The notes: generated from the letters alone by a model not told the origin. Positions 1 through 16,897 are shown, counted from the first letter of the stretch. The stretch: DNA of 64,000 nucleotides from Christensenellaceae bacterium Phil1 (GCA_001940855.1 MSGS01000065.1:19107-83106), one strand, 5' to 3'. Numbers and translations: made by a program.

Positions 1-2
1 GC

Positions 3-683
3 GGCATCGAGGACGTTGGCGACCTGAAGGTAAATGCGCTGGGGAGAAAACTGAAAAACATAAATCCGAACGTTGAGGCCATCCGCTTTGAAGGGATAGT
101 TCAAAACATTCCCAAGGCAATGCTTGATGAATTCTGTACGGCTGATCAAACGATATTCGTAGGATGTGCGGATAACAGGGATGCGGACGTTTATGCCAAC
201 CGGATAAGCATTTACTATTCGGCGGCTTTCCTGTCCATAGGCTTCTGGGAAAGGGCATACGCGGGAGAGATATTCTATCATATTCCCGGCAGGGGAATGC
301 CATGCTACGAATGCGCGCTTGGCGATGGGGGAAACATTTCCGCAAGGGCTCAGGCCAATCATCACATATATTCTAATCAGGAAAACACAGAGGGAATGAA
401 ATTTGAGCCCGGTATTTCGGTGGATATCAATTTTATTACCACGATAGGCATAAAGCTGATAATCGATATACTCAATTCCACTGATCTGGACTATATTCCG
501 CGCCTTTTGAACAACCTTGCGCAATATACAATCATATGCAATACCGATAACCCAAAGATCGGCGGAGAAATGGTTGAAATATTCAGCTATCCGCTTCAGG
601 TAACAACGTCACTGGTGGTTTGCTACAACAGAAAAAAATGCAAGGGCGACGGAATATGCATGTATGAAGCGGAAGAAAAATAG
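3..683 (+). CDS. E1-like ThiF/MoeB-family adenylation-domain protein, C-terminal part (5' end lies outside the window)
   Basis: The frame is open from nt 3 to TAG at 681-683. The translation GIEDVGDLKVNALGRKLKNINPNVEAIRFEG...FVGCADNRDADVYAN...GRGMPCYECALGD fits the ThiF/E1 pattern: an INP strand, the DN..R nucleotide-binding motif and a PCYxC cysteine motif. A second Cys cluster (KKCKGDGIC) sits near the C-terminus. Confidence 0.7.
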   Translation, partial: GIEDVGDLKVNALGRKLKNINPNVEAIRFEGIVQNIPKAMLDEFCTADQTIFVGCADNRDADVYANRISIYYSAAFLSIGFWERAYAGEIFYHIPGRGMPCYECALGDGGNISARAQANHHIYSNQENTEGMKFEPGISVDINFITTIGIKLIIDILNSTDLDYIPRLLNNLAQYTIICNTDNPKIGGEMVEIFSYPLQVTTSLVVCYNRKKCKGDGICMYEAEEK

Positions 684-732
684 TTTTTGTGCGGATTAAA
701 AGCAAAAACAGGAAAGTGCGACGGAGGTATCT

Positions 733-3700
733 ATGGAACTCATACCCATGACATATCAGGAAACTTTTCGGCTGATACAGGATATGAACGCACTTATTGA
801 CAAAACGGACGGCTTTGCGCTGAACATGCAAAAGCTGTACTGCGTCAAGGAAGTGAAAATGAAGGAGAATCATTGCGATATAATGCGCAAGCTTGATTCC
901 GATCATCAAAACGCAATTGAAAACACCAAGGCAAGATCCAAGAATATGATAAATGAGGCAAAAAGGATCAAGCGGGAAATGCATGCGCTCGATGAGCAGC
1001 TTTCGCATGCAGACAAATACTATGTAAAAACCAAAAAGAAAAAAGAGCTTGAGCTTGCCGGTGTGAAAGACAGAAAATATGATTCCAACGGCGATTATTT
1101 TAAAGCACTCGATCAAATTAAGCATCGCTATTCGGATTTGAGCCGCAAGTACTCCACCGATATACTCCCAAGCCTTATAAACGGGTTAAACTATCTGTTC
1201 TCAAGCAAACGCAAACAGGAGTACGAGGAACTGATAATCCTGCTCAACACGGTGGATGCGTTTGTGACTGAGATTGGCTCCGCAATGCCGGAGATAACGG
1301 CCGAAACGATCGCCGACATGGACTCCGAATATAAAGCGCAGAGGGAAAAGCTTGAAGCGACGCAGCATTTGGAAATAGAAGCCTTGGCGACGGAATATGA
1401 GCATAACATGGCCAGCTTTGCAATGAAAGCGGATGCTGAGTTTGACAAGCTGCTTCCCAAAACGCTTATTAACAGAATGAGGGAGGCGCTGAATAAATTC
1501 AGCGATTCATTCGGCAAGGTCAATTCCGCCGTTCCGGTCGCCAATAATATGCTTGCTGCGGCGATTGTGGATTATCCGATAGCCGACTTTATTAAGTCGG
1601 ATGCGATAAACAAGATCATAAACAAAAAATGCAATGCGATCATAAGCGACGGGAGCATCAAGTTTCCGCTGATATGCTCGACTACGTCCCCTTTGTCATT
1701 TTATATTAAGACGGACGGAACCGGCTCGGAGCCGGTAAAGCAGCTTATACACGGAATAATGTTTTCATTCTTGTCATCCGTGCAGGTATCAAAGCTTAAA
1801 CTTAGCGTGATAGACTGCGAAAACCATGGCAACAGCGCAGCGCCCTATTTCGACGCGAGGAAGAAAATGCCGGAGCTTTTTGACGGCCAGTTCTATACAA
1901 ACTACGAAGCGGCTGCCGCAAAAATACGGGCGCTGAACGAAGAGGTAGAGCGTATTTCTCAGGATGTTTTGGGAACTCAGTATGCATCTGTTTTCGGATA
2001 CACAAAGGATAATCCAAACAGCGAATGCCGTGTCGAACTTCTTACGGTTTTTGATTTTCCCAAGGGCTTTGATGAATATCTGCTTTCTGCTCTTGAAAAC
2101 ATTATTGTTCACGGGCCGCAGTGCGGGATATATGTTGCCATTACCGAAAGCGGCGAAATATCTTCGAATGTTTACTCAAAAGAATACATAAACCATATTG
2201 CGAAAATAAGAAAGGCCTGCGCTTTTATACAGCAGAGAAACACCAAATTCACTGCATCAGGGCTTGATTTAACGTGCTGCGCAATGCCGCCGCGAAACGA
2301 ATTCAACGCTTTCTTTTCAAAGTATTTGCTTATTAACGAAAGCATAAAGAACCGTGGCATCGCTTTCCCGCCGATCATAAAGCGGCTGGTGGACAGCCGG
2401 GATGAAGCGGCGCTTGAGCAAAGCATAAAGGACGTTTGCGATGCAGCGAGCGCTTATGACAATGGCTACGGGCACGTTCCGCAGGCGGCCAACGTGTATC
2501 CGGAGCAGGTGATAATAGGCCAAACACAGTATCCGCAGGATGTGTTTGCGGACTGCCTCGGCTGCGAAAAGATCAAAAGCAGCTTTGCGGCACCGAATGG
2601 GCGCATAATGCTTACGCTTTCGCTTGATTTAAGTCAATCTGCGAACCTGCTGCTGTCCTTTGACGAAAGCCGGGCGGGAAATGCGGCTGCGTTTACGCAT
2701 AATGTTATATGGAGCTTCCTTTCGGCACTGCCGGTTACGAAGACAGATGTTGTAATATTCGATGCCGAGAAAAAAGGCGGAAGCGTAACGCCGTTCCTCG
2801 GCTTCAAGAAGGCCTGCCCGGACGTATTTGACGACAATATCTATTCGAACGCGGATGATATTTACGAGCGGCTGAATAAATTGAACCGGCAGATAGACAG
2901 CCTTATTCAGGAAAAGCTCGGCAGCCGCTTTGCCAATCTTTTGGAATATAACCGCAATACGCCAAATATGGCGGAGCCCATAACGCTGCTTGTAATATAT
3001 GATTTCCCGGGCGGCTTTGACGCAAGAGCATTGAGCATGCTGAACAACATACTCAAAAACGGCGGAAAGTGCGGCGTTTATACAATTATATGCCATAATC
3101 GCGGCGTGCATTATTCCTCTTATGATAACGTTAATGAATATATGGAAACCTATAAGCGGAGCTGCACGCAGATAGAACTGACGGATAAAGCGATATCTCT
3201 CCTTCCGTTTAATCTGCCCATTTCCGTAAAGGAGCCTTTGACGTACAAAGAGATCGACAAATTTGTTGAGGATTATAAAGCGGAGAGCGAAAAGATAAAG
3301 AACAAGGGATTGTCTTTCACGGATATTTTGGATGACGGGCTGTTTTCAAGAACACTTGAAAAGGGTCTGTCCATACCCGTTGGCGTGGTCGACGGGGAGC
3401 ACATAGTGCCTATCACGTTTGGCCGTGGGTCTTCGCATCATGCGCTCATTGCCGGCGCAACCGGTTCGGGTAAATCCACGCTGCTGCACACGCTGATTAT
3501 GAGCGCAATGCTGAATTATTCACCGGATCTGCTTAACCTCTATCTAATGGATTTCAAGAGCGGTACTGAATTCAAGGTGTATGATTCAAGGCGTCTGCCG
3601 CATATTAAACTGCTTGCGTTGGATGCAATGCAGGAGTTCGGCGAAAGCATACTTGAAAATCTTGTTAGCGAAATTGGCAGGCGAAGCGAGATGTTCAAGT

Positions 3701-5100
3701 CTGTTGGCGCGTCTACACTGGGCGAATATGTTAAGCTTTCCGGCGTGGCAATGCCCAAAATACTTATAATAATGGACGAGTTTCAGGTTCTGTATAACGA
3801 TTCCACAAATCGCAAGGTGGCAAACCATTGCGCGGAATTGACAAAGCGCATAGTAACGGAAGGCCGTTCCTACGGCATGCACCTGTTGATGGCTACGCAG
3901 TCCACAAAAATCATTTCGAATCTTACGATTGAAACAGGAACGATTGAGCAGATGCGTATAAGGATAGGCCTGAAATGCGGCGAATGGGACGCAAATTATC
4001 TGTTTACGGAGAGAAACGATGCGAAAGCATTGAAAATGATGAAAGGGCCGATAGGCACGGCCGTTATGAACGAGGAATATACGGAAAAGGACCTGATAGC
4101 CTTCCGGGCGGCTTATTGCGATGACGCAACGCAAAAGAAATACCTTGATATTATCGCCAATGAGCTTACGGAATACAAATACGATCTCCAGACGTTTGAA
4201 GGCAGCAAGGTAACGCCTCTGCTGGATACGGAATTCGGCTCATCTGGTCTTGACGACGAAGCGCCGCTTGCCGTCGAGATAGGCTCGCTTATTAAGGTTG
4301 CGCCGCCGCTGAGAATAGTGTTCGACCGCCGCCGCAAGCACAATACGCTGATATGCGGAAGCGGAGAGCGTATGTCCGAAAATCTTATGAATCTGTATTC
4401 GCTTGCAATACTTAAAAACAATGGCGCCAAGCTCTATTGCTTTGATGGCGAGCGGCTGCTCGGTCCTTCTCAGGCCGATCGCTTCTATGAAGAATACGCG
4501 CGTTTCGGCTCAAGGTTTACAATGGCTGACGGCAGGGGAGACATTATCCGCTGCATCAATGAAGTATATGACATATATACTGCAAGAAAAAAGAAAAACA
4601 GCGGCAATCAGATATTCATCATGATCAAAAACCTTCAGTTTATGGATATAATCAAGTCGATGCTGAAGGGAGAACCGATAGATGAATCGGATTATCTTGA
4701 GGATGCACCGGTTCAGGAAGTGCCGGATGATCCGTTCGATTTCGGCATGGGAATAGATACTTCTGCGATGAATGTATCGGACAAGCTGCTTAAGCTGATA
4801 GACGACGGAACGGTCTACGGAGTATTCTTCATAATCGGAAGTATTGAATTCCAAAGCGTTAAGGAATGCATGTACTTTGGGGAAAATACTCTTCCCAAGT
4901 TCCCCGAACGATATGTATTCTCGCTTAACGACAGCGATGCCGAATCGCTGATAGAGAATATATCGGTAAAGTCTCTTAAGCATAACACGGTGTATTATTC
5001 CGATTCGATCAAGAATACATTCCAGGTGAAGCCGTATGTTTTCCCATCCGCAGAGGAGCTTCATATACACCTGAATTCTGTTATAGGGGGTAACGAATAA
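733..5100 (+). CDS. Four-module FtsK/SpoIIIE-family (EssC/EccC-like) P-loop ATPase, apparently soluble, with a coiled-coil-like N-terminal region
   Basis: 1455-aa ORF with a GGAGG RBS 6 nt before the ATG. It has one canonical Walker A (AGATGSGKST, nt 3451-3480) and Walker B (ILIIMDEFQ, nt 3760-3786). Three degenerate copies of the same module occur at DGTGSEP (nt 1714-1734), DESRAGN (nt 2662-2682) and CGSGERMS (nt 4354-4377). Each copy is followed by a helix and an xLxxxDxxxGG-type strand. The first ~320 aa are Lys/Glu-rich and helical. I saw no hydrophobic TM segment or FHA-like region. Confidence 0.8.
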   Translation: MELIPMTYQETFRLIQDMNALIDKTDGFALNMQKLYCVKEVKMKENHCDIMRKLDSDHQNAIENTKARSKNMINEAKRIKREMHALDEQLSHADKYYVKTKKKKELELAGVKDRKYDSNGDYFKALDQIKHRYSDLSRKYSTDILPSLINGLNYLFSSKRKQEYEELIILLNTVDAFVTEIGSAMPEITAETIADMDSEYKAQREKLEATQHLEIEALATEYEHNMASFAMKADAEFDKLLPKTLINRMREALNKFSDSFGKVNSAVPVANNMLAAAIVDYPIADFIKSDAINKIINKKCNAIISDGSIKFPLICSTTSPLSFYIKTDGTGSEPVKQLIHGIMFSFLSSVQVSKLKLSVIDCENHGNSAAPYFDARKKMPELFDGQFYTNYEAAAAKIRALNEEVERISQDVLGTQYASVFGYTKDNPNSECRVELLTVFDFPKGFDEYLLSALENIIVHGPQCGIYVAITESGEISSNVYSKEYINHIAKIRKACAFIQQRNTKFTASGLDLTCCAMPPRNEFNAFFSKYLLINESIKNRGIAFPPIIKRLVDSRDEAALEQSIKDVCDAASAYDNGYGHVPQAANVYPEQVIIGQTQYPQDVFADCLGCEKIKSSFAAPNGRIMLTLSLDLSQSANLLLSFDESRAGNAAAFTHNVIWSFLSALPVTKTDVVIFDAEKKGGSVTPFLGFKKACPDVFDDNIYSNADDIYERLNKLNRQIDSLIQEKLGSRFANLLEYNRNTPNMAEPITLLVIYDFPGGFDARALSMLNNILKNGGKCGVYTIICHNRGVHYSSYDNVNEYMETYKRSCTQIELTDKAISLLPFNLPISVKEPLTYKEIDKFVEDYKAESEKIKNKGLSFTDILDDGLFSRTLEKGLSIPVGVVDGEHIVPITFGRGSSHHALIAGATGSGKSTLLHTLIMSAMLNYSPDLLNLYLMDFKSGTEFKVYDSRRLPHIKLLALDAMQEFGESILENLVSEIGRRSEMFKSVGASTLGEYVKLSGVAMPKILIIMDEFQVLYNDSTNRKVANHCAELTKRIVTEGRSYGMHLLMATQSTKIISNLTIETGTIEQMRIRIGLKCGEWDANYLFTERNDAKALKMMKGPIGTAVMNEEYTEKDLIAFRAAYCDDATQKKYLDIIANELTEYKYDLQTFEGSKVTPLLDTEFGSSGLDDEAPLAVEIGSLIKVAPPLRIVFDRRRKHNTLICGSGERMSENLMNLYSLAILKNNGAKLYCFDGERLLGPSQADRFYEEYARFGSRFTMADGRGDIIRCINEVYDIYTARKKKNSGNQIFIMIKNLQFMDIIKSMLKGEPIDESDYLEDAPVQEVPDDPFDFGMGIDTSAMNVSDKLLKLIDDGTVYGVFFIIGSIEFQSVKECMYFGENTLPKFPERYVFSLNDSDAESLIENISVKSLKHNTVYYSDSIKNTFQVKPYVFPSAEELHIHLNSVIGGNE

Positions 5101-5795
5101 TGCCATCGGTTTCCGTTTCGTCTGATGAATTAAGAAGGCAGCTGACCATGCTTGCGGTGACTGCCGAAGAGGTGGAGCGCGCATACAAAACCATATTGTC
5201 GCAGTACAGGCAGCTTGGCGGCCGATGGAACGATAACAAATTCAGGGAGCTTGGCGATGTTATAAACGAAAGCGTATCGTCGCTCAAGAAAATTCAGCTC
5301 GTGTTTCTTAAAGGCCAAAAGGACATGATACAAATACTGCGGGCGGTGGAGGAATACGAGCAGACAAATTTGAACGGCGCGGCGCAGGGCTCCTTTGGCA
5401 ATGCGCCGCAGGGCGCGGGTACGCAGGCAGACTTTGGCGGCGCGGCGCAGGACCAGGCGGAAGAAGGCGGCTTTACCCTGCATTATTCGCGGGAAATGAC
5501 CGATAACATGTGGCAGCGCAATGTGGAAAGCACAGATGCGATGATAGACAATTATAAAGAGGCGCTGATGGAACGCGGAGTTCCAGACGGGGAGTGGCTT
5601 AATAATACGCTCTCTCGGCATAGGGCGGCGATGCTGGAACAGTGCGGCTATGAGCTGGATGTTGCAAGCGGCCATTCGCAGGACAGTACGAATGACGCGA
5701 ACGCATATAGCTGGCCGGGGGATTATCACGCATTTTACGATCAGCTGGCCGAAGAATACAGGCAATACTGCCAAAACGGCGGGCAGGATAAATAG
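5100..5795 (+). CDS. WXG100-like helical-hairpin protein with a low-complexity linker and an unknown C-terminal domain
   Basis: The ATG overlaps the TAA stop of the ATPase gene by 1 nt (TAATG), suggesting translational coupling. The N-terminal ~95 aa are helical with Trp43 in GGRWNDNKF, the position of the WXG turn in canonical WXG100 proteins. A Gly/Ala/Gln-rich linker (NGAAQGSFGNAPQGAGTQADFGGAAQDQAEEGG) and a ~110-aa C-terminal domain follow. Confidence 0.55.
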   Translation: MPSVSVSSDELRRQLTMLAVTAEEVERAYKTILSQYRQLGGRWNDNKFRELGDVINESVSSLKKIQLVFLKGQKDMIQILRAVEEYEQTNLNGAAQGSFGNAPQGAGTQADFGGAAQDQAEEGGFTLHYSREMTDNMWQRNVESTDAMIDNYKEALMERGVPDGEWLNNTLSRHRAAMLEQCGYELDVASGHSQDSTNDANAYSWPGDYHAFYDQLAEEYRQYCQNGGQDK

Positions 5796-5834
5796 CCCGG
5801 CGATACGCTGACAAGCGGCGGAAAGGACGGGGAA

Positions 5835-6719
5835 ATGGGATTTAAGGATACATTGGCCAAGGTATTCAGGCTCAGCAATATAGGCACGTTTATATTCTTT
5901 GCGCTGAATTTGTCTGTGATCATAGGCCTGCTTTATCCGTACAGTATTACTCCGGCAGGGGGGATGATATTGCTTGCCGTTTATGTTATAACGGTAGCGA
6001 TCGGCTTTTCTCCCGTCGGAGAATGGGCGCTTTGCATATTTGCCAGTGCGAGGGACATAAAGCGCCGCGATATGAAGATAAAGCTGATACCGCTGCTTGA
6101 AATAGTATACGGAAGGGCGAAGCGCGAAGCGCCGAATATGGTGGATTCGCTTCGCCTGAAAATAGTTCCGGGCAGCGGGGTAAACGCATACGCGCTCGGC
6201 AGGAGGACTATTGGCGTTACGGAGGGACTTCTTGATCTTCCGGACGAAATGATAATGGGCATATTTGCGCACGAGCTTGGGCACATTGCGAACCGCCATT
6301 CCGAAATACAGCTGCTCATAGGCGGGGCAAACGCAGTGGTTTCCATTTTCTTGCTGATACTTAAGCTTGCTGCATGGGCAATATCTGGAATATTCGGGCT
6401 TGCTGCGATCGGTACGCGAAAAAGCGGCGCAGGCTGCCTGATAGGGCTTTTCGGCAGCATTGCCGCGCTTAGCGTTTTTGCGTGGACAAAGTTCTGTATG
6501 CTGTTTTTAATGTGGTCGGCAAGAAGAAACGAATTCATTGCCGATGAGTTCGCATATAAGCTGGGCTTTGGCGGGCAGCTTGCATGGGCGCTGGATAATC
6601 TGGCGGACAGTGCGCCGCCCGGCAGCATTTTGAAGGCGCTGTATTCAAAGCATCCGGGAAAGGATGAACGAATAGCCCGCCTGCAAAGCCTTGGCGCGGA
6701 ATATTCAAGATGGCATTAA
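5835..6719 (+). CDS. M48-family (HtpX-like) integral-membrane zinc metallopeptidase
   Basis: It carries the HExxH motif FAHELGHIANRH and the downstream M48 signature ADEFAYKLG...SKHPGKDERIARLQ. There are two hydrophobic helices at the N-terminus and two more after the HExxH. A purine-rich RBS (GGACGGGGAA) precedes the ATG. Confidence 0.85.
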   Translation: MGFKDTLAKVFRLSNIGTFIFFALNLSVIIGLLYPYSITPAGGMILLAVYVITVAIGFSPVGEWALCIFASARDIKRRDMKIKLIPLLEIVYGRAKREAPNMVDSLRLKIVPGSGVNAYALGRRTIGVTEGLLDLPDEMIMGIFAHELGHIANRHSEIQLLIGGANAVVSIFLLILKLAAWAISGIFGLAAIGTRKSGAGCLIGLFGSIAALSVFAWTKFCMLFLMWSARRNEFIADEFAYKLGFGGQLAWALDNLADSAPPGSILKALYSKHPGKDERIARLQSLGAEYSRWH

Positions 6720-6729
6720 CCCTGCTGCT

Positions 6730-7092
6730 TTAGCCCTCGTCCGGCATTTGGGAATCGTATATACATTCGTCCCAGATGCTCTCTTTGCAAAATTCGTCCC
6801 ATATGGCGGTCTCAAGCTCGCTCAGCGCGGCTGCAAGGCCGTTTTCGTTTGCGGGGAATGCGGCGGCATAGCCCGCTGCGTCCGCATCGCAGAAGCCGGT
6901 TTTGTTGCTCCAGCCAACTATTTCCGGCAGTATCCCGCGCGCATCAAGCCATTCGGCAAAGGCCATGGAAAGCGCAGGGTAGTCTATCTGCCCCAGCGGC
7001 GCTGCGCCGAAGCCCTCGTGCGAAATATAGAATGGGCCGGCGTATTTAAGTCCGTTTTTATATTGAGATACAAGCGTTTCAACTTTGCTCAT
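6730..7092 (-). CDS. Small acidic hypothetical protein
   Basis: ORF of 120 aa counted from ATG 7092, with RBS GGGGTGA 5 nt upstream; the track's start at 7101 is GTG. It is co-directional with and just downstream of the MATE gene. The C-terminus is acidic (WDEFCKESIWDECIYDSQMPDEG). I recognise no family. Confidence 0.5.
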   Translation of the reverse strand: MSKVETLVSQYKNGLKYAGPFYISHEGFGAAPLGQIDYPALSMAFAEWLDARGILPEIVGWSNKTGFCDADAAGYAAAFPANENGLAAALSELETAIWDEFCKESIWDECIYDSQMPDEG

Positions 7093-7136
7093 AATATTCA
7101 CCCCGTTCAGCGTTTATAGCTATAGTTTACCCGCCT

Positions 7137-8465
7137 TTATTGCTTTTGTAAACGCCTGCTTTTGAACATTGTAATCAAACCAGTCGCGTCTGCCAGCAGC
7201 CAGCCTATGGGTATTGCCATCCATATGCCTATTTCGCCTATTTTTGCGGAAAGTATATACGCAAGCGCCACGCGCGTGCCCAGCGATATAACCGTAAGCA
7301 CAACGGACATTGCGGGCCGCTGCACCGCGCGGAAATAGCCATACAGCAGGAAAAGGCAGCCTATACCGAAATAGAACGCGCCTTCTATGCGAAGATATTT
7401 TATTCCCGCCAGTAGCACGGCTGTTTCGTTTGCGTCAATAAATATAAGCATCAGCGGGCGGGCAAATGCGAACACCAGCGCCGATATTGCCACGCTGAAC
7501 GCCGTGCTTATAATAAATGCTTGCTTCGTGCCCGCGCGTATGCGCCCATGGTCGCCCGCTCCATGGTTCTGCGCAACGAATGTGGAATAAGCGTTGCCGA
7601 AGTCCTGCACGGGAAGGTAGGCGAATGTGTCTATCTTCACCGCGGCGGCAAACGCGGCCATTACCGTAGCGCCGAAGCTGTTTACAAGCCCCTGCACCAT
7701 AAGTATGCCGAAGTTCATTACGGACTGCTGAAGGCAGGTGAGGGAGGACAGGCTGAATATATCCTTCAGTATAGGCTTGCTGAAGCACATATCCTCGTGC
7801 CTTGGGATAAGCTCCGGGCATTTGAAAAGCACATACAGGCATAAGCCCACCGCTGAAACGTACTGCGCAATAACCGTTGCCCAAGCTGCGCCCGCAATGC
7901 CCCAACTGAATACCAACACGAATATCAAGTCAAGCGCAATGTTCAGCACGGCGGATATCGCAAGGAAAATCAGCGGCACGGAAGAATTGCCAAGCGCGCG
8001 CAGCAGGCAGGAAACATAATTGTAAAGCGAGGTCGCAATAAGCCCAACGTATATAATTGCCAAATATTCGCGCATACCGCTGCGCACAGCGTCCGGCACG
8101 CGCAGGAACGAGAGAATTGGCTCCATGAAGGCGTATACTGCGGCGTTGAGCAGCACTGTTATAGAAAGGATGAGCACGAATGCGTGCAGTATGCCTGATC
8201 TCAGCGAAGAAGAATCGTTCCGCCCGCGGTATATCGAAAAAAGCGCGCCCGAACCCATGCTCAGCCCCAGGAATATGGAAGTGAGAAACGTAATAAGCGT
8301 ATAGGCCGAACCAACCGCGGCAAGCGCGTTTGCGCCAAGCGCACGGGATACGATAAGCGTATCGGCAATGTTATAAAACTGCTGCAGCATATTGCCCGCC
8401 ATCATTGGCAGCGCAAACAGAATGAGCGAGCGGGATATGCTCCCGCGCGTAAGGTCACGATACAT
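7137..8465 (-). CDS. MATE-family multidrug/toxic-compound efflux transporter
   Basis: 442 aa and about 12 TM helices. The N-terminus ILFALPMMAGNMLQQFYNIADTLIVSRALGANALAAVG is typical of MATE (NorM/DinF-type) proteins. GAGGAA RBS. Confidence 0.9.
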   Translation of the reverse strand: MYRDLTRGSISRSLILFALPMMAGNMLQQFYNIADTLIVSRALGANALAAVGSAYTLITFLTSIFLGLSMGSGALFSIYRGRNDSSSLRSGILHAFVLILSITVLLNAAVYAFMEPILSFLRVPDAVRSGMREYLAIIYVGLIATSLYNYVSCLLRALGNSSVPLIFLAISAVLNIALDLIFVLVFSWGIAGAAWATVIAQYVSAVGLCLYVLFKCPELIPRHEDMCFSKPILKDIFSLSSLTCLQQSVMNFGILMVQGLVNSFGATVMAAFAAAVKIDTFAYLPVQDFGNAYSTFVAQNHGAGDHGRIRAGTKQAFIISTAFSVAISALVFAFARPLMLIFIDANETAVLLAGIKYLRIEGAFYFGIGCLFLLYGYFRAVQRPAMSVVLTVISLGTRVALAYILSAKIGEIGIWMAIPIGWLLADATGLITMFKSRRLQKQ

Positions 8466-8550
8466 GGCACATTCCTCAACTGATGATAGTGATGCGAAAG
8501 CATATTATAAAAAATGCTTGCGCAATAGTCAACAATATTGCCTAAAATGT

Positions 8551-8578
8551 TTGTTTTTTGCCGCGCGCGTGGTATAAT
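8551..8578 (+). promoter_or_regulatory. Putative sigma-A-type promoter of proS (TTGTTT, 16 nt, TGGTATAAT extended -10)
   Basis: TTGTTT lies at 8551-8556 and TATAAT at 8573-8578, preceded by TGG. It sits about 55 nt upstream of the proS ATG. Confidence 0.45.
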
Positions 8579-8632
8579 GCAGGGTATGACAAAAACGGCG
8601 TTATCCCGTTAGGCGGATAGGAAAGGTGAAAC

Positions 8633-10369
8633 ATGAAAGTCAGCGAGCTGTTAGGCGAAAGGTATAAGGACAGGGTTGCGGAAATAGAAAGCCAAAACCT
8701 TATGGTAAGGGGCGGCTATATTAAGCAGGTGGGCAACGGCATATATTCCCTTATGCCTCCCGCGCGGCGTATACATAATAAGATAGAGGCGATATTGCGC
8801 CAGGAGATGGACAGGATAGACGGGCAGGAGGTACTGTTCCCCGTTACTATGCCCGCAACGCTTTGGCAGGCTTCCGGCCGCTGGGAAAGCGTCGGCAAGG
8901 AGCTTTTGCGCTTTAAGGACAGGAGCGGCGCGGATATGGTGCTTGGCATGACTCATGAAGAAGCGGCCGTGCATATGGCCATGAACGTGGCGAGCACATA
9001 TCAAAAGTACCCCTTTATGATATATCAGATACAGACTAAGTTCCGCGACGAGCCCCGTGCCCGCGGCGGCCTTATAAGGGTGCGCGAATTTACTATGAAG
9101 GATGCGTATTCCTTCCATACCTCTCAGAAGGATCTGGAGCGGTATTATAAGCGCTGCTACCGCGCGTATGAGCGCATATATGCCCGCGTAGGCATACCGG
9201 AAGTCGTTGCCGTTGCGTCCGATTCGGGCATGATGGGCGGCAAGGTTAGCCACGAGTTCATGCTGCTTACCGATATTGGCGAGGATACCATCGTCCTTTG
9301 CCCGGAGTGCGGCTACCGCGCGAACATGGAGGCGGCGGACTGCATAGTGCATAACGACCCCGATGAAGCCATGGCCCCGCTTGAAAAGGTTGCAACGTAT
9401 GACAACAAGACCATTGAGGAAGTGTGCAGCTTCCTGCACGGCAGCGCGGAAAAGAGCGCCAAGGCCGTTGTGTATCAGCGCAACGAGGACGACAGCTACG
9501 TTCTGGTATTCGTGCGCGGCGACCTTGAGGTGAACGAAACAAAGCTGAGGAACTATCTTAAGGCGGAGGTGCATCCCGCCGTTGAAATAGACCACGCCGG
9601 CCTTGTTGCGGGCGCGATAGGCCCCGTAAACCCCGCCAAGGGCATAACCGTGGTATATGACCGCTCGCTTATAGGCGCAAGGAATCTTATATGCGGCGCG
9701 AATGAAGAAGGCTACCACTTCACAGGGCTCAACATGGATAGGGACGTGCCTAATGCCGAATATGTGGACGTTGCCAAGGCGACCGTGGGCGGCGTATGCC
9801 CCAAGTGCGGCAAGCATTCGCTTACCATTAAAAACGGCATAGAGGTCGGCAACATATTCCAGCTTGGCCGCCGCTACACCGAATCCATGGGCATGACCTA
9901 TGACGATGAAAAGGGCAACCGCGTCAACCCCATAATGGGCTGCTACGGCATAGGCGTGGGCAGGCTGATGGCCAGCGTGTGCGAGGAGCATCATGACCAG
10001 TACGGCCCGGTATGGCCCATATCAATAGCCCCTTGGGAAATAGAGATATGCGCCCTGCGTGCGGATCAGGCGCACGTTAAGGAGGAAGCCAATAAGCTTT
10101 ATAAGTCACTTATGGACGAAGGCTACGAAGTGCTGTTTGACGACCGCACCGTGTCCGCAGGCTTCATGTTCTCGGATGCAGACCTTTTGGGCAGCCCCGT
10201 GCGCATAGTAATATCGCCCAAGACGCTTGACCGCGGCGTGGTTGAAATAGTTACAAGGGACAAGACCATAAAGGAGGACGTTCCCCTTGAATGCGCCATG
10301 CAGCGCACCAAGGAAATAGTGGCGGAGCTTTACGCGCGCATAAACAGCCACGTTCCCGAAAGCATATAA
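8633..10369 (+). CDS. proS: Proline--tRNA ligase (bacterial type with insertion/editing domain)
   Basis: 578 aa. The sequence NLMVRGGYIKQVGNGIYSLMPPARRIHNKIEAILRQEMDRIDGQEVLFPVTMPATLWQASGRWESVGKELLRFKDR is the class II ProRS motif region. The C-terminal anticodon-binding domain is present. Confidence 0.95.
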   Translation: MKVSELLGERYKDRVAEIESQNLMVRGGYIKQVGNGIYSLMPPARRIHNKIEAILRQEMDRIDGQEVLFPVTMPATLWQASGRWESVGKELLRFKDRSGADMVLGMTHEEAAVHMAMNVASTYQKYPFMIYQIQTKFRDEPRARGGLIRVREFTMKDAYSFHTSQKDLERYYKRCYRAYERIYARVGIPEVVAVASDSGMMGGKVSHEFMLLTDIGEDTIVLCPECGYRANMEAADCIVHNDPDEAMAPLEKVATYDNKTIEEVCSFLHGSAEKSAKAVVYQRNEDDSYVLVFVRGDLEVNETKLRNYLKAEVHPAVEIDHAGLVAGAIGPVNPAKGITVVYDRSLIGARNLICGANEEGYHFTGLNMDRDVPNAEYVDVAKATVGGVCPKCGKHSLTIKNGIEVGNIFQLGRRYTESMGMTYDDEKGNRVNPIMGCYGIGVGRLMASVCEEHHDQYGPVWPISIAPWEIEICALRADQAHVKEEANKLYKSLMDEGYEVLFDDRTVSAGFMFSDADLLGSPVRIVISPKTLDRGVVEIVTRDKTIKEDVPLECAMQRTKEIVAELYARINSHVPESI

Positions 10370-10382
10370 TTTAAGCTGAAGT

Positions 10383-10419
10383 AAAAAAGCGGGCAGTCCG
10401 GTAAGGGCTGTCCGCTTTT
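10383..10419. terminator. Bidirectional rho-independent terminator between proS and the convergent membrane-protein gene
   Basis: The stem pairs AAAAGCGGGCAG with CTGTCCGCTTTT, flanked by A and T tracts. Confidence 0.6.
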
Positions 10420-10433
10420 GCGCAGTATAAAGC

Positions 10434-11117
10434 TTATTCTTCACCGCTTTGTATGCGCCGCTGCATAGCGTATGCGTGGCGCAGCATGTATATTGCCATG
10501 GCAATAACGCCTATGCATATCACGCCGCCGGTTATTGCGTTCATGCGGCGGGGATACATTTCGGTATCGGGTGAAAAGCGGGCTATGAGCGCCGTTTGCA
10601 GGCCCAGCATGGACATCATTGCCGCAACAAGATTCACAGCCCTTGCCGCGGAAAGAATTGGCATGCCGAAGCGGCGGGATTTGGCAAGGTTGACTATTGC
10701 GCTTATGAACATATAAAACGCATGCAACGCGGAAAGATAAATGATATAGCCTGGGTAATTATAGCGAAGGTTGGCTATTACCATCAGCGATATCATCGCA
10801 CCCATTGCCGCATTGAGCGCAAGGAGCATAAACCCCGTGCGGCGGTAGCAGGAATATTCATAATAAAGCCGCTCGCTGCCGCCAAGCGGAGCCGCGCGCC
10901 GCATGCCGAAAATGAGATACGCCCTAAGCATACCAAGCACGGCATAGTACACGGCCATGGATAAGAACCAGCGGGAGCCGTATCTAAGTCCGACTATCGT
11001 GCGGAAGGCGGCATACAGTATATCGACTGCCAAGCCGATATAAATGCCCGCAAGGCTTCTGAATTGCGCATCGCGTATATATCTTGTCAAAAGCCGCACG
11101 GGCATGGTTCGCTTCAT
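10434..11117 (-). CDS. Hypothetical multi-pass membrane protein
   Basis: 227 aa with about 6 hydrophobic helices and an AGAGG RBS. No recognisable catalytic motif. Confidence 0.65.
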   Translation of the reverse strand: MKRTMPVRLLTRYIRDAQFRSLAGIYIGLAVDILYAAFRTIVGLRYGSRWFLSMAVYYAVLGMLRAYLIFGMRRAAPLGGSERLYYEYSCYRRTGFMLLALNAAMGAMISLMVIANLRYNYPGYIIYLSALHAFYMFISAIVNLAKSRRFGMPILSAARAVNLVAAMMSMLGLQTALIARFSPDTEMYPRRMNAITGGVICIGVIAMAIYMLRHAYAMQRRIQSGEE

Positions 11118-11291
11118 TTGCTACCTCTTGGATTTACTGTAATTATAGTTTAACGCCTGCGCAATATTTTTTGCAAGTGCTATCTTTTTTTACATTCTTG
11201 CCGCATAGCTGTTTTTGTTTTTGCGCATAACCATGGTATAATATAAATTCAGCATGAAAAATGCTTTATGGCAACGAAAGGAAAGATTACT

Positions 11292-13457
11292 ATGGGTCTG
11301 CCGGCAAAACTGGTTCACTCTCAATTGAACTTCTTCAAGCCGCTGGTGGCTAACTGTTCGCTGGAAACTATACGCCGCGGGCAGGATAAGCTGGGCGAGC
11401 TGATGGAAGCCATACACAGGAAGGACGTGATCACGCGCGATCATGCCTTCGCAAACTTTGAAGGCGCGTGGATAATACCCAAGGACGAGCGCAGGCAGGG
11501 CGTTATGCTTTACCTGCACGGCGGGGGATACACCTGCGGAGACCTTGACTACGCAAAGGGCTTTGGCGCAACGCTTGCGGACGAGGAAGGCGTGCGCGTG
11601 TTTGCTGCGGCATACAGGCTGGCGCCGGAAAGCCCATACCCTGCGGCGGTGGAGGACGCGCTGGAAGCATATAACTACCTTCGGCAGAAGGGCTATAAGC
11701 CGGAGCATATAATGCTCTGCGGCGAAAGCGCGGGCGGCGGGCTGTGCTTTGCACTGTGCTTAAAGCTGAAGGAGCTTTCGCTGCCGCTGCCCTGCGGAAT
11801 AATAGCCATTTCCCCGTGGGCGGACCTTACGGCCTCCGGCAGCACATACGAGACAAACCGCGAAAAGGATGTTTCGCTCACGGCAGAGGTGCTGGAGTTT
11901 TACGCCCAATGCTACGCCGGTGAGCACGACAGGCGGGAGCAGACAATATCGCCCCTGTTCGGGGAGCTTACGGGCATGCCGCCTTCGCTCATATTCGCTG
12001 GCGGGGACGAAATACTGCTGGATGATTCCGTGCGGCTCAGCAGGCGGCTGACCGAGTGCGGCTGCAAGAGCAGGCTTATAATCGCGCCGGAGCGTTGGCA
12101 CGCATATGTGCTGTATCAGCTTAATGAAAATCAGGATGATTTCACAGCCATAAACGCTTTCCTCAACGACCATCTTTGCCCGGAAAGAAAGCTTAGATGG
12201 ATGCGGCTGGACAACGCGGCGAAGATTTACCCCGCGGCAAGGCGGAAAAACTGGAATAATTTCTTCCGCGTGTCCGCCACTATGACGGAAAACGTGGACA
12301 GGGAGGTGCTTCAGGCCGCGCTGGACGTTACGGTGCGGCGGTTCCCGTCCATAGCCGTGCGGCTGAGGCGGGGCACGTTCTGGTATTACCTGGAGGAGCT
12401 TTCAAACGCGCCCAAGATTCGGGACGAGAAGGCTTACCCGCTGGCGTATGTGCCTTTCAAGGAGGTGCGGGAGTGCGCGTTTAGGGTTATAGTATACAAA
12501 AAGCGCATAGCGGTGGAGTTCTTCCACGCGCTGACGGACGGCAACGGCGCGCTGACATTCGTTAAAACGCTGGTTGCGGAATACATAACGCAGAAATACG
12601 GCGTGGAGATACCCAATGAGGACGGCGTACTCTGCCGCCTGGAAGCGCCAAGCGATGAGGAGCTGGAGGACAGCTTCCTTAAATTCAGCGGGGATGTGCG
12701 CGCCAGCCGCAGCGAAAAAACGGCGTATCACCTGAGCGGCACGCCGGAGGAAAACGGCTTTGTGGACATTGTTACGCTTATGCTCAGCGCGGACGATGTG
12801 CGCAAAAAGGCAAAGGAGCACGGCGTTACCGTGACGGAGTTCCTGTGCGCGGCAATGATGGAGGCCATACTTGAAATTCAGGCGGAAATGGTGCATTCCC
12901 GCCGCAGGAGAAAGCCGGTAAAGGTGCTTATACCCGTTAACCTGAGGAAGCTTTTTTCAAGCAAAACGCTCAGGAACTTTGCCCTGTACATAACGCCGGA
13001 GGTCGATCCCACGCTCGGGGAATACACGTTCGATGAAATATGCGCCATAGTGCATCACCGCATGGGGCTTGACTACACCGCAAAGCTTATGGGCACCCGC
13101 ATTGCTACCAACGTGAGCAGCGAGCGGGCGCTTGCGCTGAAGGTTATGCCGCTTTTCATAAAGAACATTGCAATGAAGGCCGTGTTCGATGCGGTGGGGG
13201 AAAGGAAAAGCTGCCTGTGCCTATCCAACCTTGGCAACGTTACGCTGCCCGGGGATATGCCAAAGTATGTTGAGCGGATGGATTTCATAATAGGCGTGCA
13301 GGCGCGCGCGCCGCACAACTGCGGCATAATAACATACAACGGCACAATGTACATAAACATGATCCGCAACATAAAGGAGCCGGAGCTTGAGCTGAGGTTC
13401 TTCCGCGCGCTCAAGCGGCAGGGGCTTAACGCCGCCGTGGAGAGCAATCAGGCTTAA
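11292..13457 (+). CDS. Fusion protein: N-terminal alpha/beta-hydrolase (HSL-type esterase/lipase) and C-terminal condensation/alcohol-acyltransferase-like domain
   Basis: The oxyanion motif LHGGGY and nucleophile elbow GESAGG occur in the first ~300 aa. The acyltransferase motif HALTDGNG (HxxxDG) occurs in the C-terminal ~420 aa. I chose the start at ATG 11292 (RBS GAAAGGAAAG); an alternative ATG at 11268 has no RBS. Confidence 0.75.
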   Translation: MGLPAKLVHSQLNFFKPLVANCSLETIRRGQDKLGELMEAIHRKDVITRDHAFANFEGAWIIPKDERRQGVMLYLHGGGYTCGDLDYAKGFGATLADEEGVRVFAAAYRLAPESPYPAAVEDALEAYNYLRQKGYKPEHIMLCGESAGGGLCFALCLKLKELSLPLPCGIIAISPWADLTASGSTYETNREKDVSLTAEVLEFYAQCYAGEHDRREQTISPLFGELTGMPPSLIFAGGDEILLDDSVRLSRRLTECGCKSRLIIAPERWHAYVLYQLNENQDDFTAINAFLNDHLCPERKLRWMRLDNAAKIYPAARRKNWNNFFRVSATMTENVDREVLQAALDVTVRRFPSIAVRLRRGTFWYYLEELSNAPKIRDEKAYPLAYVPFKEVRECAFRVIVYKKRIAVEFFHALTDGNGALTFVKTLVAEYITQKYGVEIPNEDGVLCRLEAPSDEELEDSFLKFSGDVRASRSEKTAYHLSGTPEENGFVDIVTLMLSADDVRKKAKEHGVTVTEFLCAAMMEAILEIQAEMVHSRRRRKPVKVLIPVNLRKLFSSKTLRNFALYITPEVDPTLGEYTFDEICAIVHHRMGLDYTAKLMGTRIATNVSSERALALKVMPLFIKNIAMKAVFDAVGERKSCLCLSNLGNVTLPGDMPKYVERMDFIIGVQARAPHNCGIITYNGTMYINMIRNIKEPELELRFFRALKRQGLNAAVESNQA

Positions 13458-13489
13458 ACGGACGGGAAAGAAAGGAGAGACGAATACAT

Positions 13490-14188
13490 ATGTATTGCAT
13501 AAAATGCGGAGTGGAGCTGAAGGACAGCGAGGAAAAATGCCCGCTTTGCGGCACGGTGGTGTTCCATCCGGACATGAAGCGGCCGGACGGTGAAAAGCCG
13601 TATCCCGCCGAAAGCAGGCGGCCTGCCGAAACGGCCAGCCGCTCGGGCATGCTGTTCATAACAAGCATAATGTTCTTGGTGCCGTTCGTGCTGTCGCTGC
13701 TGTGCGACTGGAAGGTGAACGGAACGCTTGTATGGTCGGGCTATGCGGCGGGCGCACTTGCGCTTGTATACATAATAGTAGTGCTGCCCATGTGGTTCCG
13801 CCATGCAACGCCGGTTATATTCGTTGCGGCGGACTTTGTGGCGATAGGGCTATATTTACTGTATATCGATTTTGCCGTGAACGGGCATTGGTTCCTTTCC
13901 TTCGCGTTCCCCGTGACCGGCGGGGCTATGCTTATTGCCTGCGCCGCGGTAACTCTGCTGCATTATCTTAGGAAAGGCCACCTGTTCGTGTACGCGGGCA
14001 CGCTCATAGCCATTGGCGGCTTCGCGGTGCTTGTGGAGTTCCTTATAAACATAACGTTCCATGTGAGCGATACGCTCGTGTGGTCGCTGTATCCGCTGGC
14101 GTGCAGCCTTATATTCGGCGTAACGCTTATCGTTATCGCCTGCTGCCCCAAGATGCGCGAGGGACTGAGAAGGAAGTTCTTTATATAG
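13490..14188 (+). CDS. Zinc-ribbon domain membrane protein
   Basis: The N-terminus MYCIKCGVELKDSEEKCPLCG has two CxxC pairs and is followed by about 5 TM helices. AGGAGAG RBS. Confidence 0.75.
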   Translation: MYCIKCGVELKDSEEKCPLCGTVVFHPDMKRPDGEKPYPAESRRPAETASRSGMLFITSIMFLVPFVLSLLCDWKVNGTLVWSGYAAGALALVYIIVVLPMWFRHATPVIFVAADFVAIGLYLLYIDFAVNGHWFLSFAFPVTGGAMLIACAAVTLLHYLRKGHLFVYAGTLIAIGGFAVLVEFLINITFHVSDTLVWSLYPLACSLIFGVTLIVIACCPKMREGLRRKFFI

Positions 14189-14208
14189 GGGCTGCGGTAA
14201 ATACAAAC

Positions 14209-14240
14209 AAACCGGGGGACGGCAATCCGTCCCCCGGTTT
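14209..14240. terminator. Bidirectional rho-independent terminator (AAACCGGGGGACGG-CAAT-CCGTCCCCCGGTTT)
   Basis: A perfect 14-bp stem sits between convergent genes (13490-14188 on + and ppdK on -). Its core, GGGGGACGGCAATCCGTCCCCC, recurs at 39670-39691. Confidence 0.75.
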
Positions 14241-14269
14241 AGCTTTATTCAAACCTGAATACTTATTTC

Positions 14270-16897
<2,628 letters not shown>

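Follow-up and report, generated by a model that had tools for sequence, protein, structure and literature searches.

To our knowledge, bacterial cascades of E1, E2 and JAB proteins have so far been linked only with the sulfur chemistry of cofactors and with the anti-phage systems CBASS, Bil and Bub, and the only ubiquitin-fold protein of type VII secretion known to us is a non-conjugated one: YukD, which has a beta-grasp fold but neither an E1 or E2 nor a DUB. Together, YukD/EsaB and the N-terminal domain of EccD are the ubiquitin-fold parts of the canonical type VII secretion system (T7SS) (Iyer et al., 2006; PMC1779556), so that the attachment of a ubiquitin-related element to a T7SS has a precedent. 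In the T7SSb of Bacillota, an EssC/YukB motor is accompanied by WXG100 proteins, LXG toxins and small helical Lap targeting factors (PMC9600955, PMC10801868). Furthermore, non-canonical YueA/EssC-like ATPases have been reported from Proteobacteria, Planctomycetes and other phyla (PMC3482391); these systems resemble the one described below in their single active module, their WXG-like link and their location on mobile DNA, but are presented without any link to E1, E2 or JAB. The family described here differs from them in being clostridial and in having an extra module, an N-terminal coiled coil and toxin cassettes.

In the following, we describe a locus in which an ATPase of the T7SS type adjoins genes for E1, E2 and JAB proteins. 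The original prediction, made from the DNA sequence, held that this combination fits neither a known T7SS nor a known class of E1 systems, and the genes found upstream, the scores against curated models and the lack of a CD-NTase bear this out. Full-text searches of the literature found no link of E1, E2 or JAB to a T7SS-like ATPase, an absence which, with most subscription papers outside reach, is not proof.

Gene content and genomic context

The window, by which we mean the whole analysed stretch of 64,000 nucleotides from Christensenellaceae bacterium Phil1 (MSGS01000065.1:19107-83106), opens with four genes on the + strand. These encode the C-terminal 226 residues of an E1-like adenylating enzyme (3..683), whose gene is open at the window edge, a soluble EssC/EccC-like ATPase of 1455 residues (733..5100), a 231-residue WXG-fused protein (5100..5795) and an M48 (HtpX-like) membrane zinc peptidase of 294 residues (5835..6719). 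ORF calls and junction sequences agree with the co-directional operon that had been predicted: the E1 and ATPase genes are separated by 49 nt, with a GGAGG 5 nt 5' of the ATG at 733; the ATPase gene and its neighbor overlap by 1 nt in a TAATG at 5098-5102; and a gap of 39 nt precedes the M48 gene, with a purine-rich ribosome-binding site 5' of the ATG at 5835. Scans for promoters and terminators yielded counts no higher than the shuffled background. The assignment of three of the products to the ThiF, FtsK and M48 families is upheld by Pfam, with matches of the E1 to ThiF (1.5e-9; 37.9 bits, cut-off 28.1), of ATPase residues 897-1057 to FtsK_SpoIIIE (2.1e-24; 86.7 bits, cut-off 24) and of the peptidase to Peptidase_M48 (3e-20; 73.3 bits, cut-off 20.3). 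Every component of the locus is at present annotated as ‘hypothetical protein’.

Position 1 of the window corresponds to position 9269 of the upstream-extended contig (L001), on which the full-length E1 gene (8788-9951) encodes 387 residues. Directly 5' of it lie the genes for a JAB peptidase, an E2-like protein and a small protein, p62, and further upstream come four genes for WXG100-like helical proteins and one for a membrane protein with a B-box zinc finger. The gene order of the entire island is thus resolvase, TetR, w80, cc255, (p187), w92, w89, B-box, p62, E2, JAB, E1, ATPase, WXG-fused protein, M48. A Ubl, an E2 and a JAB protein had been suspected just upstream of the window; the latter two are indeed there, while the modifier is represented by the candidate p62 and not by an obvious beta-grasp Ubl. 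Likewise, the proposed four-gene system has to be redrawn, as the B-box protein and the four further WXG-like genes also belong to it and the M48 peptidase is not part of its core. An ordinary T7SSb variant is not what the upstream region holds: among the called genes of L001 and of a second locus, L002, there is no Pfam match for EssB/YukC, EsaA/YueB, EssA or YukD/EsaB, and where T7SSb has these, this locus has the B-box membrane protein, E1, E2, JAB, p62 and M48 instead.

The island spans about 14 kb (L001, about 2100-16000) and is horizontally acquired, with low GC and a resolvase as its hallmarks; the window contains its 3' end. An integrase-bearing element is found at two different sites, one of them beside a TIR gene, and no convincing direct repeats flank the ends of the island. 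In a scan covering 72 loci, 52 species-level genomes offered sufficient upstream sequence, and in 43 of these p62, E2, JAB and E1 adjoin the ATPase, with the same synteny in all p62 contexts examined. The adjacency of E1 and ATPase is therefore not unique to one genome, and its recurrence in dozens of species-level genomes rules out chance. The island is recurrent in gut Clostridia.

A motor related to EccC and EssC

By profile and by fold, the nearest relatives of the ATPase are EccC, EssC and YukB, and its best match in the PDB, by sequence and fold alike, is EccC (4nh0); in this respect, the locus resembles T7SSb with its multi-module FtsK-like motor. The ATPase has more than 180 full-length homologs. 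The NCBIfam models for T7SS EccCa and EssC are matched with E-values of 4e-32 and 5e-30, respectively, but both scores lie far under the cut-offs (T7SS_EccC_a, 111.7 bits vs 509.2; T7_EssCb_Firm, 103.9 bits vs 778.4). Unlike EssC of T7SSb, the protein has neither N-terminal FHA domains nor the two transmembrane (TM) helices, as had been predicted: no FHA match is found in Pfam, no TM helix is predicted and the maximum 19-residue hydropathy is 1.5. Its N-terminus is instead formed by a coiled coil of 300 residues.

The remainder of the chain comprises four modules. The first two, m1 (about aa 300-610) and m2 (about aa 610-875; together 1630..3357), are degenerate and P-loop-like without a Walker A motif; they are mutual duplicates (hhalign, 1.5e-55), and in the AF2 model their beta and alpha elements alternate. 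Module m3 (3358..4242) is the sole one with an intact Walker A motif (GATGSGKST, aa 908-916, nt 3454-3480, including K914), which is invariant in the alignments, as is a DEFQ motif. The C-terminal module m4 (4243..5097) is again degenerate; the AF2 model matches ‘ATPases 2 and 3’ of EccC/EssC (4n1a, 4lya; E about 1e-21), and by analogy to domain D3 of EccC, it may possibly bind substrate. Over residues 300-1455, the AF2 model (pLDDT 81.8) aligns in about 980 columns to EccC D1-D3 (4nh0, E 1e-29) and matches ATPases 2 and 3 of EssC (4lya) at 2e-21. The description of the protein as a four-module ATPase is hence borne out by its predicted fold but not by its sequence, in which m3 alone is recognizable; we dropped the notion of four FtsK modules on sequence grounds, since hhalign links just m1 to m2 and the fold model is needed for the rest. 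Moreover, the Walker A motif is kept only in m3, so that, in contrast to T7SSb EssC, only the third of the four modules would be active.

At the N-terminus, a Lys-rich segment (aa 88-175; 994..1257, + strand; DKYYVKTKKKKE ... ILPxLINGLNYLFSSKRKQEYEELI) sets two groups of homologs apart. Its mean identity is 57.7% in 41 E1-linked long ATPases, compared with 16.8% in five E1-less ATPases, in which m2, m3 and m4 are conserved nearly as well as in the E1-linked ones. In these alignments, the segment is conserved solely where the E1 module is present, and this co-variation makes it a candidate docking or acceptor site of the conjugation module.

Putative conjugation enzymes and a candidate modifier

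Among the profile models, the E1, E2 and JAB proteins all find their best matches in those for Cap2/Cap3 of type II CBASS. The full-length E1 matches the PADLOC model for CBASS ‘E1-E2’ (2.3e-25); its closest relatives in the PDB are MccB, UBA5 and Cap2, of which MccB is the nearest solved one, and its motifs GCGSVGS, CRHQC and PCYxC are kept in 48 orthologs. In the E2-like protein, which matches the PADLOC model for CBASS E2 (1.9e-7), an HP motif and Cys133 are invariant; a search of its profile against PDB sequences gave no match, and its identification as an E2 is based on the PADLOC models and these motifs. The JAB protein matches Prok-JAB in Pfam (8e-10) and CBASS JAB in PADLOC (6.8e-13) and has a conserved JAMM motif (HxHx7Sx2D). 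The logic is likely that of type II CBASS, in which a protein C-terminus is activated and the JAB protein reverses the modification. However, Cap2 is an E1-E2 fusion, whereas E1 and E2 are encoded by separate genes here; the p62 gene always precedes that of E2; the enzymes are partnered with an ATPase of the secretion type; and neither a CD-NTase nor a nucleotide-activated or other CBASS-type effector is present in L001, L002 or the related loci inspected.

The protein p62, encoded directly before E2-JAB-E1, has about 55 residues and no match in Pfam, NCBIfam or PADLOC. Its C-terminal PxGKLA is invariant, being terminal in about 75% of the sequences and followed by 1-4 extra residues in about a quarter, a pattern that fits an activated tag. 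As with ubiquitin, the Ubls of Bil and Bub, Pup and MccA, an invariant C-terminus with optional short extensions occurs beside an activating enzyme and a peptidase; unlike these, p62 has only about 55 residues, ends its core in Ala, not Gly, and is predicted, with low confidence, to be ordered helix-strand-strand-helix-strand. In the AF2 model from 54 sequences (pLDDT 68, low confidence; H12-27, E32-34, E40-42, H43-49, E54-56), the element order differs from the canonical beta-beta-alpha-beta-beta, and a beta-grasp fold is not clear. Unlike YukD, the small protein here is accompanied by conjugation enzymes and has no clear beta-grasp. The Ala end, the lack of a confident beta-grasp and the proximity of the E1 to the peptide-modifying MccB run contrary to a role of p62 as a modifier.

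Two other candidates were dropped. The GGSGG at the C-terminus of cc255 might have served as the activated end, but is not conserved among orthologs, and the C-terminal Lys of the WXG proteins, considered as an acceptor, occupies a position that alternates between K and R.

WXG100-like proteins and toxin cassettes

Like T7SSb, the locus encodes several small WXG100-like helical proteins beside a longer helical toxin carrier. In Pfam, WXG100 is matched by w89 (1.6e-5) and w92 (2.5e-3), and hhalign relates w80, w92, w89 and the N-termini of the toxins to one another as homologs (probability 92-99.8%). The 231-residue protein of the window consists of a WXG100-like helical N-terminus, a low-complexity linker and a conserved middle domain. 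Itself, it has no Pfam match, WXG100 (PF06013) included, at E <= 0.01, and the WXG100-like N-terminus ascribed to it can therefore be upheld at the family level only, where 17 of 37 members match WXG100 in their N-termini (best 3.7e-7; all WXG100 scores reported here are at or under the Pfam gathering score) and the N-termini align with the w92 family (hhalign, 1.2e-29).

Over residues 9-202 of a 356-residue relative, the 231-residue protein can be aligned at 38% identity (5e-52), and the longer relatives carry a C-terminal toxin domain. Among the domains that downstream paralogs carry are C-terminal ADP-ribosyltransferases (ADPrib_exo_Tox, 7e-27) and C39-like ones. In related loci, one to three WXG-fused toxins form arrays, each followed within 4 nt by a small ORF, and the small ORF after one toxin encodes a SUKH-1 immunity-type protein (1.7e-12). 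A further likeness to T7SSb is that the C-terminal toxin domains are polymorphic and have immunity-type genes beside them. That the WXG-fused protein of the window lacks a toxin domain counts against an export function.

Membrane proteins

Two membrane proteins accompany the motor. The B-box protein is conserved, with two to three TM helices and invariant ligands, and zf-B_box is matched by 28 of its 32 members. It is also present in E1-less loci, and an E3 role can therefore not be its only one. At the E1-less locus L040, there is no membrane protein in the cluster; with an ATPase that has neither TM helices nor FHA domains, the channel is thus not evident. The M48 peptidase has four predicted TM segments and an HExxH motif (HELGH, aa 146-150, nt 6270-6284), which, together with NE..AD, is kept in 27 orthologs. 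Its assignment is secure in Pfam and motif, but it is an accessory and not a core part of the system: it occurs in 18 of 35 E1-linked loci with at least 6 kb of downstream sequence, about half, and in none of four E1-less loci.

Possible functions

We hold with moderate confidence that these loci encode a non-canonical T7SS-like system for the export of WXG100-like proteins and toxins, which is regulated by reversible conjugation of p62. Its cargo would be the WXG100-like helical proteins and the WXG-fused polymorphic toxins, and its motor the soluble EssC/EccC-like ATPase, in which one module is active and three are degenerate. This motor probably docks on the B-box protein with its two to three TM helices, because it has none of its own. 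Where p62 bears an extension of 1-4 residues, the JAB protein would trim it to expose ...P-x-G-K-L-A; the E1 would adenylate this C-terminus, and p62 would move to the invariant Cys of the E2, be conjugated to a component of the apparatus and eventually be taken off again by the JAB protein. The target or docking site would most likely be the Lys-rich segment near the N-terminus of the ATPase, and the B-box protein may serve as an adaptor or E3-like factor. The role of p62 conjugation would be to gate export or to target it. The M48 peptidase, a frequent accessory, may act on the cytoplasmic side of the membrane to process substrates or clear them, loosely like mycosin in ESX. A stronger version, for which we can argue only tentatively and which we regard as doubtful, is that of a new Gram-positive export machine whose motor or cargo is controlled by covalent, reversible attachment of a non-beta-grasp p62 via a Cap2/Cap3-like cascade, with the B-box protein as an E3-like adaptor. 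Such a machine would be the first known to secrete proteins under the control of ubiquitin-like conjugation, and p62 would stand for a new family of protein tags.

Should the export reading be true, ubiquitin-like signaling in bacteria would extend to protein export or interbacterial antagonism, and a new small tag defined by a C-terminal motif would join those known. The pairing is conserved and widespread in abundant Clostridia of the human and animal gut, and a minimal T7SS-like motor that is split from its membrane part would be useful for mechanistic work.

An alternative is an intracellular conflict system, directed against phages or acting by abortive infection, in which E1, E2 and JAB regulate the ATPase and its WXG partners as they do CD-NTases in CBASS, with the toxins as suicide effectors: all three are closest to CBASS defense models and match the NCBIfam anti-phage model ‘6A-MBL cap2_3’. 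The mobile, island-like nature of the loci, with their low GC, resolvase and, at two sites, integrase element, once beside TIR, would suit such a system, as would the solubility of the ATPase and the conflict-system-like context of a distant proteobacterial plasmid relative, which is flanked by vWA, CARF, PP2C and kinase genes. Nevertheless, we consider it unlikely, given that no CD-NTase or other sensor is found, that PADLOC yields no system-specific match beyond generic FtsK/HerA, that the ATPase is nearest to T7SS motors and that arrays of WXG-fused toxins with small ORFs, SUKH-1 among them, are a hallmark of polymorphic toxins that are exported and paired with immunity proteins.

Since one operon unites a tag and the E1, E2 and JAB proteins with a protease and a ring ATPase, the system might also direct unfolding and degradation in the manner of the proteasome and Pup, with p62 marking proteins, a hexameric ATPase unfolding them, the JAB protein stripping the tag like Rpn11 and M48 degrading the chain at the membrane. 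Although the nearest solved relatives of the JAB protein are Rpn11-like, if weakly (0.002), and the active site of M48 is predicted on the cytoplasmic face, as in HtpX, this appears highly improbable to us: about half of the E1-linked loci lack M48, the ATPase is a translocase of the FtsK/EssC class and not an AAA+ unfoldase, and no role would be left for the WXG-like genes and the toxin-immunity cassettes. Least probable in our judgment is that p62 is the precursor of a ribosomal peptide, modified at its C-terminus by an MccB-like E1, trimmed by the JAB protein and exported as a microcin-like product. Here, the invariant Cys and HP motif of the E2-like protein and the Cap3-type JAB suggest a chemistry of transthiolation and isopeptide bonds, p62, which has 55 residues and a conserved helix, far exceeds MccA-type substrates in size, and a dedicated peptide transporter is missing from the locus; yet the top PDB matches of the E1, MccB and PaaA, do modify peptide C-termini and have an N-terminal extension comparable to its own (about 100 residues), and p62 is short and poorly structured, with an invariant C-terminus.

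Relatives on mobile DNA and cultured carriers

In phage and plasmid collections, matches were confined to a single unannotated fragment of 10 kb (‘Bacteriophage sp.’) and to distant, partial ones on plasmids, and thus give no sign that phages or plasmids carry the long form. The plasmid matches, from Caballeronia, Rhodococcus and Helicobacter, align to modules m2-m4 of the ATPase and probably represent the group of PMC3482391. Carriers of the island include Lachnospiraceae MGB1 and, among those in culture, Faecalibacterium prausnitzii ATCC 27768.

The operon at the window's left edge and the complete island

The window opens with a compact operon on the forward strand, encoding an E1-like ThiF protein (3-683, open at the window edge; Pfam ThiF, 1.5e-9), a 1455-aa ATPase (733-5100; FtsK_SpoIIIE, 2.1e-24, matching aa 897-1057 only), a 231-aa protein (5100-5795; without a Pfam match of its own) and an M48 peptidase (5835-6719; Peptidase_M48, 3e-20). 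Pfam thus upholds the three family assignments of the original prediction, which had also described the junctions correctly: a 49-nt gap with GGAGG ahead of the ATG at 733, a TAATG overlap at 5098-5102, and a 39-nt gap with a purine-rich ribosome-binding site ahead of 5835. The G+C content is 45-49% in the first 6 kb, compared with 53-59% in the remainder, which holds housekeeping genes (proS, gyrAB, mfd, glgP). Between the M48 gene and a MatE gene lies a 123-aa ORF (6730-7101, reverse strand) without a Pfam match; among the examined loci it was seen only in L001 and L002, and it may mark the island's right edge. A 729-aa alpha/beta hydrolase (11268-13457, forward strand; Abhydrolase_3, 4e-49), whose C-terminal region weakly resembles alcohol acetyltransferase (3e-4), is unrelated to the finding.

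The ATPase sequence is present on 12 public contigs, of which a 112-kb contig of GCA_965315305.1 (L001; window position 1 is L001 9269) carries the complete locus. It comprises a small serine recombinase (212 aa; Pfam Resolvase), a TetR-like regulator (201 aa; TetR_N, 3e-4), the helical protein w80 (80 aa), the coiled-coil protein cc255 (255 aa), the lineage-specific p187 (187 aa), the small proteins w92 (92 aa; WXG100, 2.5e-3) and w89 (89 aa; WXG100, 1.6e-5), a zinc-finger (B-box) membrane protein (319 aa; 2-3 TM segments), p62 (62 aa; without a family match), an E2-like protein (182 aa; CBASS E2 models, 1.9e-7), a Prok-JAB protein (354 aa; 8e-10) and the full-length ThiF-type E1 (387 aa), and ends with the ATPase, the 231-aa protein and M48 inside the window. 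The additional parts anticipated upstream of the window, namely a modifier candidate, an E2 and a JAB protein, are therefore present before E1. EssB, EsaA, EssA and YukD are absent from the upstream region of this locus, so that it does not read as an ordinary T7SSb variant. The island has a G+C content of 44-51% and its flanks 52-58%.

At the left island end, a 19-nt inverted repeat (L001 2804-2943), whose arms are 95% complementary and separated by 102 nt, lies in the stretch from the resolvase gene to the TetR-like gene and is a possible operator or site of recombination. The p187 gene (L001 4680-5243), directly after cc255 and confined to the lineage of L001 and L002, encodes a protein without a family match that contains TAHHIPSAKAQG; in relatives, cc255 continues into a toxin domain at this position, so p187 may be a toxin module that has become a separate gene. 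The cc255 protein of L001 ends in GGSGG, an ending not kept in other loci.

Conservation, locus forms and mobility

Scanning one genome per species (GTDB) with an alignment of the ATPase yielded 72 loci, whose ORFs were searched with the L001 proteins. The order w80 - cc255 - w92 - w89 - B-box protein - p62 - E2 - JAB - E1 - ATPase - one to three WXG-fused variable proteins - M48 is shared by loci from Lachnospiraceae, Oscillospiraceae, Acutalibacteraceae, Ruminococcus and termite-gut MAGs, and cultured carriers include F. prausnitzii ATCC 27768 and Lachnospiraceae MGB1. Among the 52 loci with at least 4.5 kb of upstream sequence, the conjugation module (p62, E2, JAB and E1) is complete in 43, partial in one and missing in eight; the co-occurrence of E1 and ATPase is thus conserved across genomes. 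Conversely, the ATPase was found in every p62 context examined. M48 occurs in 18 of the 35 E1-linked loci whose downstream sequence is long enough and in none of the four E1-less loci with at least 6 kb downstream.

Loci without the module (e.g. in Blautia glucerasea) retain w80-cc255-w92-w89-(B-box)-ATPase amid housekeeping genes. A short form, very abundant in gut metagenomes, has an ATPase of ~1130-1165 aa with one module fewer, and its genes run B-box - p62 - E2 - JAB - E1 - small gene(s) - ATPase - several ~90-aa proteins, which are WXG-like where tested. One short-form element (P0181 lineage) opens with genes for a tyrosine integrase and a TetR-like protein and sits at two different chromosomal sites; in another (P0163 lineage), a tyrosine integrase adjoins the operon and large serine recombinases lie nearby. 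In a rough, non-rigorous NJ tree, E1-linked short forms are basal, followed by an E1-less grade and an E1-linked long crown, which suggests that the E1-less forms lost the module. One short-form copy (L078, 10811-13000; ENA ERZ14864666 contig) looks like a system broken by insertion or deletion: its E1 runs on into a large serine recombinase (called product ThiF + Recombinase + Zn_ribbon_recom), and unrelated genes replace the ATPase and downstream genes.

The conjugation enzymes and p62

E1, JAB and E2 match CBASS E1-E2, JAB and E2 models (2.3e-25, 6.8e-13 and 1.9e-7, the last over nearly the full length). E1 retains the nucleotide and zinc motifs, JAB retains E...HxHx7Sx2D, and in the E2 family the HP motif and Cys133 are both invariant. 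The nearest solved relatives of E1 are MccB and UBA5, followed by Cap2; like MccB, it has an N-terminal extension, here of 100 aa.

The p62 family comprises at least 230 clusters, all without annotation, and features a conserved helix (RRRALAEAL), a VVTPSGEV segment and an invariant C-terminal P-x-G-K-L-A. This motif ends the protein in about three quarters of the sequences, while the others continue for 1-4 variable residues (KED, GED, RRS, RGE, FKEA, SSEV, R or KQ). Such a pattern fits a putative modifier that is activated at its C-terminus and in some cases made with a pro-peptide. The AF2 model of p62 is weak (pLDDT 68), and a beta-grasp order was not seen in it. Divergent p62 proteins (A4 alignment; L029, L056, L058-L060, L065, L067) carry an N-terminal V-P-x-G-x-F-A that resembles the C-terminal V-P-x-G-K-L-A, perhaps as an internal mimic or as an additional site for recognition.

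The motor and its N-terminal segment

The ATPase begins with a coiled coil (aa 1-300), followed by two mutual duplicates (aa 300-610 and 610-875; hhalign 1.5e-55) in which FtsK is not recognisable from sequence, a typical FtsK domain with the Walker A motif GATGSGKST (aa 876-1170) and a degenerate module (aa 1171-1455). As originally claimed, neither FHA domains nor TM helices were matched or predicted. Comparisons with profiles and with PDB sequences rank T7SS motors first (EccCa 4e-32, EssC 5e-30, EccC 4nh0 7e-34, YukB 6e-21), with profile scores far under the family cut-offs, and FtsK follows well behind (1e-10). Modelled with AF2 from 38 sequences (pLDDT 81.8), aa 300-1455 find their top fold match in the cytoplasmic domain of EccC with its three ATPases (E 1e-29 over about 980 aligned columns), followed by ATPases 2+3 of EccC/EssC and then by FtsK motors and TcpA. 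The description as a four-module EssC-like protein therefore holds by fold; by sequence, only aa 876-1170 are recognisable, and there is a single catalytic module. The N-terminal 875 aa match 66 clusters of a 50%-identity library at E <= 1e-30 and 438 at E <= 1e-10. A distant relative of modules m2-m4 (28% identity over 927 aa) lies on Caballeronia sp. SBC2 plasmid pSBC2-5 (NZ_CP049321.1 20744-38537) in the order vWA - WXG100 - three hypothetical genes - FtsK-like - CARF (DUF1887) - vWA - PP2C - Ser/Thr kinase - AAA. Here a diderm has a WXG/FtsK pair whose neighbourhood resembles that of a conflict system.

Within the coiled coil, aa 88-175 (window 994-1257; DKYYVKTKKKKE ... ILPxLINGLNYLFSSKRKKDYEELI) show a mean identity of 57.7% among 41 E1-linked long forms, in which the neighbouring segments reach only 23-26%. 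In five E1-less ATPases, the identity of this segment is 16.8%, whereas m2/m3/m4 are almost equally conserved in both groups (41.6/60.8/39.4% E1-less, 45.6/68.2/46.2% E1-linked). Distant E1-linked short forms retain parts of both of its motifs. Because conservation of this segment co-varies with the presence of E1, we argue, on comparative sequence grounds, that the conjugation module may act on or through the motor's N-terminus; this is our main argument for the link.

The B-box protein is the sole conserved membrane protein of the core. In 32 orthologues, E1-less and short forms included, its eight zinc ligands are invariant (C-x2-H-x8-C-x2-C-x4-C-x2-C-x16-C-x2-C), and 28 match Pfam zf-B_box (best 7.6e-6). 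Its inferred role is to dock the soluble ATPase, and it may also be an adaptor or an E3-like factor, the latter idea being weakened by its presence in E1-less loci.

WXG-like proteins and toxins

Mutual homology (hhalign probability 92-99.8%) links w80, w92, w89 and the variable proteins encoded downstream, the last by their N-termini; it is weaker for the cc255 N-terminus (70-83%). The WXG100-like N-terminus predicted for the 231-aa protein is thus supported at family level, the protein itself having no Pfam match. Among the downstream variable proteins are some with ADP-ribosyltransferase (7e-27) or C39-like domains, and an ADP-ribosyltransferase is also part of long cc255 forms (1.7e-28). 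Each toxin gene is followed, at most 4 nt away or overlapping, by a small ORF, one of which encodes a SUKH-1 immunity-type protein (1.7e-12). Over its first 200 aa, a 356-aa relative aligns with the window's 231-aa protein, which is missing the toxin domain and is not followed by an immunity gene.

Interpretation

We lean towards a non-canonical T7SS-like export system, in which a soluble EssC-like motor would export WXG-like proteins and polymorphic toxins, and reversible p62 conjugation would control the motor or its cargo; M48 may have a role in it. An intracellular anti-phage or conflict system draws support from the CBASS-like enzymes, the mobility of the loci and the proteobacterial relative amid vWA, CARF, PP2C and kinase genes, but we consider it rather unlikely. 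A pathway in which the tag directs degradation seems highly improbable, and a RiPP-like peptide pathway a long shot at best.

For the export system that we favour, the parts are recognisable as known kinds, while the small modifier p62 and its coupling to a T7SS-like motor appear new. A full-text literature search found no paper in which a T7SS-like ATPase is connected with E1, E2 and JAB; the closest prior statements are the association of YukD with T7SS (PMC1779556) and a footnote that mentions 'mobile versions of T7SS' whose YueA-like ATPase has one active domain (PMC3482391). In public records, all proteins of the system are labelled hypothetical. A full-length ATPase homologue (41% identity) is encoded at 2043-6299 of MT836827.1, a 10.4-kb unannotated GenBank record from human faeces labelled 'Bacteriophage sp.', which may be a misclassified island fragment.
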